DNA of 64,000 nucleotides from a virus, in UHGV virus genome UHGV-0293664; one strand, 5' to 3'. The notes under the pieces are model-generated. The model did not search any database. It saw only the letters and a program-made list of their open reading frames with translations, and was not told where the DNA came from. Every line of letters begins with the position of its first letter. Position 1 is the first letter of the stretch. The translations under genes were made by a program, and so were the position numbers. Of the stretch, positions 39,296-49,397 are shown in pieces.

Positions 39296-41363
39296 ATTTA
39301 TGGCATCTGCATACAACCGTTTCGGCGAGCCAAACCCGAAAGCAACTAAGTATAAAAGTGGGGGAAGTGTGAAACGAGACTATCGTGATGAAAAAGAAGT
39401 TGAAACTGTAGAGACTGTTTTAGAAAATACTAAAATTGTCCCTGTCCCACAACAGAATATCGGTCTGATGGCTGCACAATATTTTGGTGTGCGATCAGCA
39501 TTGTCCCAAGAAGACGGTGTGACAGTCACTGCAACATATTTCCCATATTACGACCGCTACGGAAATCTGTCCGGTTTCAAAAAGCGTGACTGGACTATTC
39601 CTAAAGAGCAAAGGGGCCATTTCTCCGTTGTTGGCATCGTAAAGGCCAACTCCCAGATGTTTGGTCAAAAGCTGTGTGCATCTTCCAACAACCGTAAGCA
39701 GATCAACGTTTGTGAGGGAGAAGGTGATGTTATTGCAGCATGGCAGGCTGCATATCAGATACAAGTAAAAGGGATTCTCACCAATGCTAAAGCCCCGGCA
39801 AAGGTGAAGCAGTGGGCTAAAGAGGTCCAGGACGGGATCGATGCAGTTATCAACGGCGGTGATCTGGCAGGAAAACCCTGCCTGCCTTTTGTTGGAATTA
39901 ACTGTGGATGTGCAAACGCAGTAGATACTTTTGCAAACAATGAGAAGTTTATCCGTAGCTATGGAACAGTTGTGCTGGCAATGGATAACGATGCAGCTAA
40001 CGAGGTAGAGAAGCAAAAACACGTCATTAAAGGTGTTGAGGCCACGCACAATATCGCAGCATTTTTAATGGCTGATAACGTTTACCACGTAGAATACCCT
40101 GGTGAAGTAAACGACCCTGACGGTGTAAAAGATATCCGAGACATGCTGAAGGCTAAAAAGCTGGAAGATATTGTCAACATGTTCCGGCATCCTGTTAAAT
40201 ATGTGCCTGATGCTGTGTCGGATTTAGAAGACTTCTCTATCGAGTCTTTGCGGAAAAAGACTTCCAACGGGGTAGATATCAGTGCAGAGTTCCCAAAACT
40301 GCAAAAAATGCTAAAAGGCTTGCACAAAGGGACACTTGTAATGCTTACAGGTCCATCAGGCGGCGGTAAAACAACCGTGGCTAAAAAACTGGAACACTGT
40401 ATTGCAAGATACCTAATGGACCCGACATGCCAGAAGGCTGATGACTATGAAGAGGATGATCGTCTATGTATGATCCATCTTGAGGAGGACCCAGAGGAAG
40501 CAATTAACTCCTTGTATGCAAACCAGTTAGGGTTTGATGTTAAAGAGTTTGTTGAAGATCCTAGCCAGTTTTTAACTGATCAAGAACACGCAGAGATTCA
40601 CCAATCATGGGCAAAAGCTGGAAAAATCAAAGTGTTCAAACATTTCGGATCTATTCCGGTGGACGAGTTGATTACCAAGCTTAAGCAAATGGTTTGCCTG
40701 TACCATTGCCGTTATATTGTGCTGGATCACCTGTCCATGGTAATTTCAGGGCTTAATGTTAAGGATGAGCGAAAAGAACTGGACATGGCTATGACTCAGC
40801 TGGCTGCGTTTTGTAAGCAGTTTAACGTGTTTATCTTGGTGATCGCTCACCTCAAACGTACAGAGATTGTGCCTCCTAAGGACAAGGATGGTAACCCGTT
40901 ACCTTTCTGGTATCCTGTGCGAAAAGAGAATTTGCGAGGATCGGCGGGGCTTGAACAGTTGAGTTGGGTAGTCATAGGTGTCGAGGCCGAAGAAATGGTG
41001 GATCGTTCTCGTGGACGTGTCCGTCTGGTAGGTCTTAAAAACCGTCCAGCAAAAACTCTAGGTATTGCTGACACTTTGGTTATGGACCCGCACACAGGTA
41101 AGTTCCATGATGCCAGTAATTGGTACTGGGACAAAGAAATGCAAATGTTTACAGACGGAGAAGGTGGGGAGGTTGTTTGGAGACCTCAGGCTATGTTTGA
41201 GGATCAGGAGCATGCAGTTGTAGAAACACCTATGGGCAAGGTTGTGGCTGATAAGGTTGTAACTCCTACTGTTAAGTCTGTTGACACGCAGGAAGACCTC
41301 CAGTACGATGATCCATCCTCTGACCCGGTCCCCGGTTTTGAGGATGATGAAACGCCTTTTTAA
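39285..41363 (+). CDS. Primase-helicase (TOPRIM plus DnaB-like)
   Basis: CEGEGD and AMDNDAANE TOPRIM-like; Walker A GPSGGGKTT; acidic C-terminus EDDETPF. Confidence 0.75.
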   Translation: MGSKFMASAYNRFGEPNPKATKYKSGGSVKRDYRDEKEVETVETVLENTKIVPVPQQNIGLMAAQYFGVRSALSQEDGVTVTATYFPYYDRYGNLSGFKKRDWTIPKEQRGHFSVVGIVKANSQMFGQKLCASSNNRKQINVCEGEGDVIAAWQAAYQIQVKGILTNAKAPAKVKQWAKEVQDGIDAVINGGDLAGKPCLPFVGINCGCANAVDTFANNEKFIRSYGTVVLAMDNDAANEVEKQKHVIKGVEATHNIAAFLMADNVYHVEYPGEVNDPDGVKDIRDMLKAKKLEDIVNMFRHPVKYVPDAVSDLEDFSIESLRKKTSNGVDISAEFPKLQKMLKGLHKGTLVMLTGPSGGGKTTVAKKLEHCIARYLMDPTCQKADDYEEDDRLCMIHLEEDPEEAINSLYANQLGFDVKEFVEDPSQFLTDQEHAEIHQSWAKAGKIKVFKHFGSIPVDELITKLKQMVCLYHCRYIVLDHLSMVISGLNVKDERKELDMAMTQLAAFCKQFNVFILVIAHLKRTEIVPPKDKDGNPLPFWYPVRKENLRGSAGLEQLSWVVIGVEAEEMVDRSRGRVRLVGLKNRPAKTLGIADTLVMDPHTGKFHDASNWYWDKEMQMFTDGEGGEVVWRPQAMFEDQEHAVVETPMGKVVADKVVTPTVKSVDTQEDLQYDDPSSDPVPGFEDDETPF

Positions 41364-41421: not shown

Positions 41422-42156
41422 ATGAACGAGTTCAGAGATCACTGTGTAGCCAATCACTTGTGGTCAGAGATATTGGAGTATGACGGTCAAAATCTTTTTT
41501 GGAAGATAGACATTCTGGCAGGTAGCGGTGTAGGATATGTTAAAACTTCAGCAGGCTCTAGAGCTGACAAGGGGCAAGATGCTGATGGCAGGCCTGTGGT
41601 CAGTCTAGGAAAGCATTGCACTAAAGGTGCCCACGTCATAATTTGGGAAATGTTTAACGGTCCTGTACCGGAAGGGTATGAGGTTGACCACATCAAGGAG
41701 ATAAGAGAAACAGGTGGTGTGGCTGATAACAGTATTCAAAATTTGCAACTGCTCGAGCCTACAGATAACAAAAAGAAAAGTTGCAAGATACCTCGTAGTA
41801 ACAACAAGTCTGGTAGGGTCGGGGTGCACTATTCTGAAGAAAGAGAGGCATGGATAGCTCAAGGCACAGATTCTGCAGGTGAAAGAGTCTGGCTAGGCCA
41901 GTACAGAACTTTTGAAGAGGCAGAGTGGGCAAGAAAGTTCTTCGAAGATAATGGTTTTTCGCACAAGAGTGGAAGAGCCGTGCAGTATAATAACACCAGC
42001 GGTTGCTCAGGGGTGAATTGGGATAAAACCCATGAAAGATGGGTAGCCAGAATTTATGTAGATGGTAAAAGGAAATGCCTTGGGTATTTCAAGAACAGAG
42101 AAGATGCAATAGCTGCAAGAAAGAGTGCTGAGAAGAAACAGGAGGAGACAGTATGA
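41422..42156 (+). CDS. HNH homing endonuclease with AP2 DNA-binding domains
   Basis: EVDHIKEIRETGGVADNSIQNLQLL HNH motif; two AP2-like repeats; inserted between primase-helicase and polymerase. Confidence 0.7.
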   Translation: MNEFRDHCVANHLWSEILEYDGQNLFWKIDILAGSGVGYVKTSAGSRADKGQDADGRPVVSLGKHCTKGAHVIIWEMFNGPVPEGYEVDHIKEIRETGGVADNSIQNLQLLEPTDNKKKSCKIPRSNNKSGRVGVHYSEEREAWIAQGTDSAGERVWLGQYRTFEEAEWARKFFEDNGFSHKSGRAVQYNNTSGCSGVNWDKTHERWVARIYVDGKRKCLGYFKNREDAIAARKSAEKKQEETV

Positions 42157-47743: not shown

Positions 47744-48109
47744 ATGGAACAAATGAACGATCAAACGTCGGTTGCGATGAACGAGCAAGAACAACCTCAA
47801 GAATTTTTCTTAGGGTTAAGTAAAGATCAAGTGTCTCTTCTGCTAGTGCTTTCTTCTTTCATGGGAAGACTTCAGGAGCTTACACAACAGCCAGAGGCTG
47901 AACAATTATTCCAGGCTCTGCGTGAAGAAGAAAAATATCGTCGTTTGGACTATGCCTTAGGTTGGGTAGCTCAACAACGAGATATGCTGATGGCCCTCTC
48001 TGGGACCACAAGTTTTGCAATGGGCCTGTTGGCTCAAGTTCAGGACAAATTAATTCAAGCAGGGTTTGCACACACGGCAAACACTAACGAAGAACAAGGA
48101 GACAAATAA
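47744..48109 (+). CDS. Hypothetical protein
   Basis: 121 aa; stop overlaps SSB-like start. Confidence 0.5.
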   Translation: MEQMNDQTSVAMNEQEQPQEFFLGLSKDQVSLLLVLSSFMGRLQELTQQPEAEQLFQALREEEKYRRLDYALGWVAQQRDMLMALSGTTSFAMGLLAQVQDKLIQAGFAHTANTNEEQGDK

Positions 48110-49335
48110 TGAGCGTTATTCAACAATTCGCTAACCCGATGAATCCGCGTGAAACTGTTTTACTGGCTCACGGCATGATTAAACGTGTCAGCATCAAGCC
48201 TATCAAGGGTGCTGATCCTACAACAGGTATTAAAACCACTGTGTGGCAAGGTAAGAAAATTGAATCCAGCCACACCATCTCTTTACTGATTTCTGAACTG
48301 GATTCCTCTGATAACCTGCTTCAAGGTGGTGAAGAAGTTTGGATCAGTATGGGTGATAAGCTGCTTAAACCTGGTCATCAAGACTCTGTCTCTGTTAAAA
48401 TTGATGACAAGTGGGAAACCGTAACGCCGGGATGGATCGTAAATATCCCTTTGAAGGCAAACGAGCATAAAGGTAAGACCTATTACAAAGGCTCACTGGC
48501 TAAGATGGTCAAGCTGGGTGCAGGAGAGGCTCCAGCAGCGACTCAGCAGCAAAAACAGCAACAAGGTGCACAATCACAAGGCCAGAAGCAGAAACCTCAG
48601 CAGAATGCCAATCAGGACGTTTTACGCATCTATGGTGATGTGACTCAGATTGTTGGCAACGTGGTTACTGTTAATGACCACAAGATTGGCGAAGGTGCTA
48701 TGGTTGTCACTGATGAGCAGCTTAAAGACCTGGTGGTAGGTGGTCGTGTTGCAGCCATTGTTGACAAAGACACCGGAAACATTATCAGTGGTTTCAAAGC
48801 CTACCCACCTAAGGAAGAGAACGGCACTCAAGGCTCTGGTGGCAAGCGTAAATCCTCTTACGACCCTATCGGTGTGGAAACGGGGCATAGCATCAATGCG
48901 TTGCAGATCATCCTGGATCGCGGGTTTAAGGTAGACGACCCACTGGGCGTGGCTAAAACACTGCACGTAGTCACCATTGAGCTTAAGAAAGAGTATGCTC
49001 AAGCCACCAACCGAACTGAAGATGAAGTAGGTGCCAGTGTCGGTAATGCGGTGTTGAACGCTTGTCGCCGTATTGACAAGAAAACGAAAGTTGATGATTT
49101 TGCAGCGGCAATTACTGCAGAAGCAAAAGATGTCTTGACTAATCTGGCTGAGCCGTTGTACGATTGGATCAAGAACGGTGCTGGGTCAACTGACCATCAA
49201 GAACCTCAGGCTGCCAAACAGGAAGCAGCTCCACAGCAAAACACTGTAGACGCTCCTCCTGTAAATGATGAGGAAGATGACCCAATGGATCAGAATCCAG
49301 CACAGTACGCCTTTGATGATGACATCCCTTTTTAA
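48109..49335 (+). CDS. Single-stranded DNA-binding protein-like
   Basis: 408 aa; Gln-rich linker; C-terminal DDDIPF matches the E. coli SSB tail tip. Confidence 0.55.
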   Translation: MSVIQQFANPMNPRETVLLAHGMIKRVSIKPIKGADPTTGIKTTVWQGKKIESSHTISLLISELDSSDNLLQGGEEVWISMGDKLLKPGHQDSVSVKIDDKWETVTPGWIVNIPLKANEHKGKTYYKGSLAKMVKLGAGEAPAATQQQKQQQGAQSQGQKQKPQQNANQDVLRIYGDVTQIVGNVVTVNDHKIGEGAMVVTDEQLKDLVVGGRVAAIVDKDTGNIISGFKAYPPKEENGTQGSGGKRKSSYDPIGVETGHSINALQIILDRGFKVDDPLGVAKTLHVVTIELKKEYAQATNRTEDEVGASVGNAVLNACRRIDKKTKVDDFAAAITAEAKDVLTNLAEPLYDWIKNGAGSTDHQEPQAAKQEAAPQQNTVDAPPVNDEEDDPMDQNPAQYAFDDDIPF

Positions 49336-49349
49336 CAATTAGTTAACAT

Positions 49350-49378
49350 AGCCCTGCCCGAAAGGGTGGGGCATTTTT
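49350..49378 (+). terminator. Rho-independent terminator
   Basis: CCCTGCCC-GAAA-GGGTGGGG hairpin then T-run; same as 38638. Confidence 0.75.
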
Positions 49379-49397
49379 GTACAAGGAGATCTGAAAA

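Follow-up and report, generated by a model that had tools for sequence, protein, structure and literature searches.

Which protein coats single-stranded DNA (ssDNA) during replication of the rV5-like phages, and what do the acidic, phenylalanine-terminated tails of two of their replication proteins stand for? The rV5-like phages (Vequintavirinae) and their relatives are common on Escherichia coli, Klebsiella, Salmonella and Cronobacter, and several papers have studied rV5-like phages for the biocontrol of E. coli O157. [quoted passage not shown] We have addressed both questions for a stretch of 64,000 nucleotides of the virus genome UHGV-0293664, referred to here as the window, which derives from a Vequintavirus, an rV5-like myophage of E. 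coli. Phage JohannBauhin, which is 99% identical to the window phage, served as the complete genome for comparison.

Two acidic tails in one replication module

The gp4-like primase-helicase and the family-A polymerase of the window are encoded together and represent a replisome set of the T7 type (Table 1). The gene for a 408-aa protein lies in the same replication module, 3.2 kb downstream of the polymerase gene, and its product is 99% identical to many Vequintavirus proteins, among them those of rV5_ev146, FFH2 and BASEL phages such as JohannBauhin. The start of this gene overlaps the stop codon of the preceding 121-aa gene in an ATGA sequence. A phrog_7310 gene is located directly upstream of the SSB-like gene also in the related loci L001-L015 and L021, down to 26% identity, and the 121-aa protein may be a functional partner of the SSB-like protein. 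On the other side, the terminator-like hairpin 3' of the SSB-like gene is kept in L001, L002 and L026.

A reading of the window made from its sequence alone (the sequence-only reading) had pointed out that the 408-aa protein and the primase-helicase both possess an acidic tail with a C-terminal Phe, and the translated open reading frames (ORFs) bear this out. The 408-aa protein ends in NPAQYAFDDDIPF, its final residues being YAFDDDIPF, and the claimed identity of DDDIPF with the tip of E. coli SSB is correct; the primase-helicase terminates in VPGFEDDETPF and thus has the EDDETPF end ascribed to it. Among the 461 ORFs of at least 40 aa in the six frames of the window, these two are the only real genes in which an acidic stretch is combined with a PF end. 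One antisense ORF of 60 aa also ends in PF, but lacks acidic residues. When the complete JohannBauhin genome was scanned in the same way (ORFs of at least 40 aa, six frames), again only these two real proteins were returned. The window polymerase is a candidate docking partner of both tails; a charge scan locates its most basic 25-residue stretches at residues 239-263 (net charge +7) and 500-524 (net charge +8).

Table 1. Features of the window, in ascending order, and loci of relatives discussed in the text.
Feature	Position	Strand	Description
gp4-like DNA primase-helicase, 692 aa	39285..41363	+	Pfam DnaB_C, AAA_25; phrog_239 'DNA primase/helicase', E 9e-160
Primase-helicase tail tip PGFEDDETPF	41331..41360	+	Acidic residues, then terminal PF, in 112/120 homologues
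HNH-AP2 homing endonuclease	41422..42156		Between primase-helicase gene and polymerase gene
Family-A DNA polymerase, 925 aa	42153..44930	+	Pfam DNA_pol_A; phrog_8888, phrog_17
121-aa protein, phrog_7310	47744..48109	+	Paired with, and directly upstream of, the SSB-like gene
408-aa SSB-like protein	48109..49335	+	phrog_4477, E 8e-173
Domain 1, aa 1-139	48109..48525	+	Basic, all-β; putative ssDNA-binding OB fold
Gln-rich disordered linker, aa 140-169	48526..48615	+	pLDDT <50 in both models
Domain 2, aa 170-236	48616..48816	+	Small five-strand barrel, OB-like topology (predicted)
Domain 3, aa 250-358	48856..49182	+	Four-helix bundle (predicted), pLDDT 84-94 in most blocks
Disordered Pro/Gln/acidic linker, aa 359-399	49183..49305	+	pLDDT <50
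Tail tip YAFDDDIPF	49306..49332	+	Last 7 residues as in the E. coli SSB C-terminus
Intrinsic-terminator-like hairpin and T run	49351..49379	+	Directly 3' of the 408-aa gene
Endonuclease loci of relatives	L003 11233-11811; L007 11232-11843; L010; L012; L015; L018; L027 5121-5666
Extension loci	L007 11198-11242; L011 7713-7757; L018; L021; L026 4210-4254; L027 5020-5064; L031-L073
Extension on canonical SSBs	L028; L029		BUCT618 SSB; Vibrio phage BT-1011 SSB

Just past their PF-stop codons, both genes have a hotspot for free-standing homing endonucleases. The HNH-AP2 gene of the window directly follows the primase-helicase gene and is absent from JohannBauhin; in relatives, EndoVII-like genes (phrog_1035, phrog_2340) directly follow the SSB-like gene, and L026 retains a 108-nt remnant of an EndoVII-like gene at this position. 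Many of the primase-helicase relatives P0057-P0059 and P0098-P0146 have a length of 975-1025 aa, compared with the usual ~670-690 aa, and these long proteins cover only ~80% of the query in one alignment, which suggests an insertion of ~300 aa, possibly an intein. The polymerase gene of the window is uninterrupted. Several relatives (L003, 3758-6199; L004; L005; L006) have a polymerase ORF that is interrupted or enlarged; the ORFs of L003 and L005 end shortly past the residues RRIIYYH, that of L004 ends near residue 607, and the ORF of L006 comprises 1257 aa. These alterations suggest introns, inteins or endonuclease insertions. A feature of Klebsiella phage vB_Kpn_K45PH128C2 (OY978796.1; L030, 778-1866) that is named 'ribonucleoside diphosphate reductase small subunit' codes for the C-terminal portion of a primase-helicase, and looks mis-annotated.

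Predicted architecture of the 408-aa protein

AlphaFold2 was run twice, with the window protein and with the 83%-identical relative P0006, and the two models agree in their architecture. Domain 1 has a pI of 9.3 and is predicted with pLDDT values of about 76-92. It is followed by a linker in which 13 of the 30 residues are Gln and which is variable in length among relatives; the Gln-rich linker described in the sequence-only reading is therefore present, and it is located between the first two domains, not ahead of the tail. The barrel of Domain 2 contains a short helix between strands 3 and 4. Foldseek returned matches of 63-71 columns to the OB domains of IF-1, RPA and YgiW, which we tentatively assign to Domain 2 because their length fits the size of this domain. 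Residues 237-249 form a short linker that connects Domain 2 to Domain 3.

Domain 3, with the conserved motifs GH..N.A and VG.AVLNA, is the best conserved part of the wider family and the best-scoring stretch in the majority of distant homologues. A Foldseek search against the PDB returned only non-specific matches for this domain, such as members of the Bcl-2 family at E ~0.3. The helical bundle may serve in oligomerisation or in partner binding. Residues 359-408, which comprise the last linker and the tip FDDDIPF, have pLDDT values below 50 and correspond to an SSB-style disordered linker with an acidic tip. The linker portion (residues 359-399) contains 10 acidic residues, 1 basic residue, 7 Gln and 6 Pro, and is comparable to the intrinsically disordered linker found in bacterial SSBs.

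Proteins of the wider phrog_4477 family are mostly 260-300 aa long, a length taken up by domain 1, the helical bundle and the tail. The majority of distant members lack Domain 2, and distant relatives match the profile with two stretches on either side of it. Domain 2, like the Gln-rich linker, has been added in the rV5 lineage. The core of the family is predicted to be a basic OB-fold domain, a four-helix bundle, a disordered linker and the tip Asp-Asp-Asp-(Ile/Leu/Val)-Pro-Phe.

Search for a known family or another SSB

The family phrog_4477, annotated as 'unknown function', matches the 408-aa protein over residues 1-408 and also matches all 115 diverse relatives. The protein bears the label 'hypothetical protein' in every GenBank Vequintavirus record listed. 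In ESCO9 and BME3, two ~145-kb E. coli phage records, the homologue is already labelled 'single-stranded DNA-binding protein'. Neither the 408-aa protein nor any of the 115 family members has a match in Pfam, DUF669 and DUF2815 included, and a profile search of PDB sequences did not match the family to the sequence of any solved structure. When the family profile was compared with E. coli SSB and T7 gp2.5 using hhalign, nothing aligned beyond the tail (the E. coli SSB sequence was entered by hand). A phmmer search with both sequences, each likewise entered by hand, returned zero matches in the JohannBauhin genome or in the window, and the annotation of the complete JohannBauhin genome contains no SSB. 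Literature searches yielded nothing relevant on an rV5 SSB or on the 408-aa protein.

A Foldseek search of the PDB with the model of the 408-aa protein produced no match below E 0.02. The weak matches obtained were to RPA, Deinococcus radiodurans SSB, the phage p2 SSB and DUF2815, a gp2.5-like family. Those in the PDB include 4klk (DUF2815; E = 0.077) and 4jg2 (E = 0.32), and weak matches in BFVD were obtained for a DUF2815 protein (E = 0.009) and the DUF669 fold (E = 0.084). Structure prediction had been proposed in the sequence-only reading as the check for an OB fold, and the model does contain a predicted OB fold, with weak Foldseek matches to RPA and SSBs. OB folds are, however, also found in proteins that do not bind DNA. 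The designation of the protein as SSB-like is further supported by its disordered linker and acidic tip, by its position in the replication module and by the fact that no other SSB is detectable in the complete JohannBauhin genome; no sequence homology of its body to known SSBs was detected.

Conservation of the tails

At the level of 50% identity, the profile search for the 408-aa family returned at least 180 cluster representatives. PF does not vary among the 28 relatives that were aligned, whose identities range from 98 to 35%, and the PF end is retained in IMG/VR loci down to 28% identity. It is also present in 110 of the 149 new family sequences listed, most of the others being fragments or carrying an extension. 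For the pooled phrog_4477 set (n = 200), which extends down to ~20% identity, PF forms the C-terminus of 149 sequences and is followed by an extension in 15 more, and the last ten positions hold 4.1 acidic versus 0.02 basic residues. The primase-helicase relatives behave similarly: PF is the C-terminus in 112 of 120, including Vibrio phage proteins at ~45% identity, with means of 4.25 acidic versus 0.03 basic residues in the last 10 positions. The strong conservation of the PF end in both families excludes chance as the source of the tails.

The hhalign alignment between the family profile and E. coli SSB is confined to the last 8 residues, which are 100% identical (D...FDDDIPF). Some relatives of the 408-aa protein end in EPPMDFDDDIPF, which we take to be the last 12 residues of E. 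coli SSB.

The two families differ at the residue before Pro-Phe: of the 149 SSB-like proteins, 141 have Ile, Leu or Val there, whereas Ser, Thr, Glu or Cys occupies this position in 109 of the 112 primase-helicases. The earlier description of the tails as matching is thus accurate for their acidic character and PF end, but not for this position. A family-specific residue before Pro-Phe argues for different affinities or different pockets, and the systematic nature of the difference weakens the idea of one shared pocket. The two tails are thus related without being equivalent, which suggests that partners distinguish between them or bind them with different strength.

A conserved peptide extension after Pro-Phe

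A minority of the phrog_4477 proteins and of the gp4-like primase-helicases, scattered among the relatives, continue past PF with a conserved peptide of 14-16 residues that has the pattern A-P-I-G-L-Q-Y-x(3-4)-hydrophobic end, as in APIGLQYGRSRIYAL and APIGLQYAKHAIYVI. P0001, which stands for a cluster of 533 sequences and shares 98% identity with the window protein, carries this extension; the window gene stops at PF. Canonical SSBs of the E. coli type bear the extension as well in small, unrelated phages, for example BUCT618 and Vibrio phage BT-1011. Plasmids of Vibrio, Salmonella and Aeromonas encode SSBs with it, and it occurs in 43 IMG/VR loci, mostly on canonical SSBs. Codon alignments of the extension contain many synonymous differences, and the peptide is therefore under purifying selection. 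In the AlphaFold2 model of P0006 the extension has pLDDT values below 35 and is disordered, with no sign of docking back onto the protein. A literature search found no description of the motif.

In L007 and L018, the extension overlaps the EndoVII-like gene at its start codon, and a truncated endonuclease start persists in L026. The idea that the extension is a by-product of homing-endonuclease cassettes was nevertheless rejected as a general explanation: a simple scan found a downstream ORF with an N-terminal Cys-x-x-Cys motif, as is typical of such endonucleases, in only 3 of the 43 IMG/VR loci, the extension is under purifying selection, and it is present on canonical SSBs that have no neighbouring endonuclease.

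Recognition of the SSB C-terminal peptide (SSB-Ct) requires the free carboxylate of the last Phe. The extension covers this carboxylate; it should therefore hide the tail from the SSB partners of the host or else build a two-part motif with it. The occurrence of one and the same extension on canonical SSBs, phrog_4477 proteins and primase-helicases independently supports the view that their PF tails form one functional class, treated by evolution as a single module. We can only tentatively suggest, as a possibility on the unlikely side, that the Pro-Phe tail is an address label that mobile elements put on unrelated replication proteins, with an optional, previously undescribed extension that switches the partners recruited.

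Discussion

The 408-aa protein is probably the replicative SSB of an rV5-like phage and a member of an undescribed SSB family, phrog_4477; the SSB-like reading as such has moderate support. Domain 1 would coat the ssDNA exposed by the gp4-like primase-helicase, an activity that we infer, as we do each of the binding partners named below. The flexible tail, whose tip copies the host SSB C-terminal peptide, would serve for docking, with the phage polymerase, or further replication and recombination proteins of the phage, as candidates for recruitment. It would very probably recruit host SSB-binding proteins as well, which should read the phage tip because it is identical to the host peptide, and phage proteins that evolved to read the same SSB-Ct peptide are further possible readers. 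The tail of the primase-helicase, which is acidic and ends in (Ser/Thr/Glu/Cys)-Pro-Phe, would probably tether the family-A polymerase to the helicase ring, as in the analogous case of T7 gp4, and the residue before Pro-Phe could allow partners to tell one tail from the other. By the same analogy, it is plausible that both tails dock on the polymerase. Since the best conserved part of the 408-aa protein is the helical bundle, which is absent from classical SSBs, the protein may do more than coat DNA.

The identity of the tip with the host peptide could also mean that the protein is a decoy, which displays the host SSB peptide in order to divert SSB-binding proteins of the host (for example ExoI, RecQ, PriA, Ung or the chi subunit) from the host SSB or to attract them to phage DNA, with coating being secondary or absent. 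The tip is an exact copy, extending to up to 12 identical residues in relatives, and no feature of the phrog_4477 family varies less than the tail. To our knowledge, however, a tail motif of the DDD(I/L/V)PF type is almost universal in bacterial SSBs, so that a genuine SSB would copy it just as well, and D-D-D-(I/L/V)-P-F is kept in metagenomic members with unknown hosts. A decoy would moreover need neither the conserved basic OB domain nor the conserved helical bundle, and would leave the phage otherwise without an SSB. We regard this reading as unlikely, and the decoy and SSB roles are in any case mutually compatible. The conservation of the helical bundle, which exceeds that of all other regions, would also suit a mediator of recombination or replication restart, or a helicase-loading adaptor, rather than a bulk SSB; the OB domain would then target the protein to ssDNA, and the bundle would carry the activity, such as loading of the primase-helicase or strand annealing. 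A conserved upstream gene that is possibly translationally coupled fits such a role, and cooperation of phage SSB tails with recombination proteins is known (PMC5928155). Neither fold search matched a known annealing protein or loader, however, and the phage would be left without any SSB. The mediators and loaders known to us (T4 gp59, UvsY, RecO, Red-beta) bind SSB tails and do not carry them, and we consider a function of this kind quite improbable.

A different objection concerns the tails only. They might be alike without a shared function, each serving a separate partner, and Pro-Phe would then reflect a general preference for acidic, aromatic-ended tails on replication proteins. The family-specific residue before Pro-Phe (I/L/V versus S/T/E/C) speaks for this separation, which we nevertheless find doubtful, since the two proteins are the only ones in the genome with an acidic stretch and PF end, and since a rare 15-aa extension, the same in both families, has been added behind PF. 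In T7, moreover, the tails of gp2.5 and gp4 converge on the polymerase. The acidic C-terminal tails of gp4 bind basic patches on gp5 (PMC12593628).

If the 408-aa protein is indeed a replicative SSB, phrog_4477 would fill a gap for a family of at least 180 cluster representatives (50% identity), and would add an SSB architecture in which an OB fold is combined with a four-helix bundle and the tail is the exact host SSB docking peptide. It would also provide an entry point to the link of a large lytic phage to the host SSB interaction network, or its competition with it. Through the paired tails of its SSB-like protein and primase-helicase, a distant myophage would come under the T7 tail-docking model, and the consistent difference before Pro-Phe would represent a natural experiment on tail specificity. 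What is new here, with moderate support, is an SSB family architecture with a host-identical tail in the T7-type replisome of a large myophage.

Comparison with known systems

The likeness to T7 that was put forward in the sequence-only reading holds in outline. As in T7, the window phage combines a gp4-like primase-helicase with a family-A polymerase, and its SSB-like protein and primase-helicase resemble gp2.5 and gp4 in that both have an acidic tail with a terminal Phe. The T7 tails end in ...DGDF and ...DTDF, whereas those of the window end in Pro-Phe, as does bacterial SSB-Ct, and differ from each other in the residue before it. Unlike T7 gp2.5, to which it has no sequence similarity, the 408-aa protein gives only weak matches to the DUF2815 fold, and neither a thioredoxin-binding loop nor a tail pocket was identified on the window polymerase, on which basic stretches were located by charge scan.

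With E. coli SSB, the window protein shares the disordered linker and the SSB-Ct tip (DDDIPF). It differs from it in a body that has no detectable SSB sequence homology and contains a conserved four-helix bundle, and in the second small barrel and internal Gln-rich linker of the rV5-lineage protein.

Similar reasoning, based on a diverged OB fold and a genome with no known SSB, has led to the proposal of N4 gp45 and DUF669 proteins, divergent phage proteins that only remote methods recognise, as SSBs (Kazlauskas et al. 2016, PMC4889955), and the tail of the HK620 SSB recruits the phage partner Sak4 (PMC5928155). The window protein resembles these in its diverged OB fold, which is predicted here, in its acidic C-terminal tail and in a genome devoid of a known SSB. 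The phrog_4477 proteins are set apart by the extra helical bundle and by the lack of a match to DUF669 or any other Pfam family. The tail of the HK620 SSB is the variant NDYPPF, whereas that of the window protein is the exact host tip.
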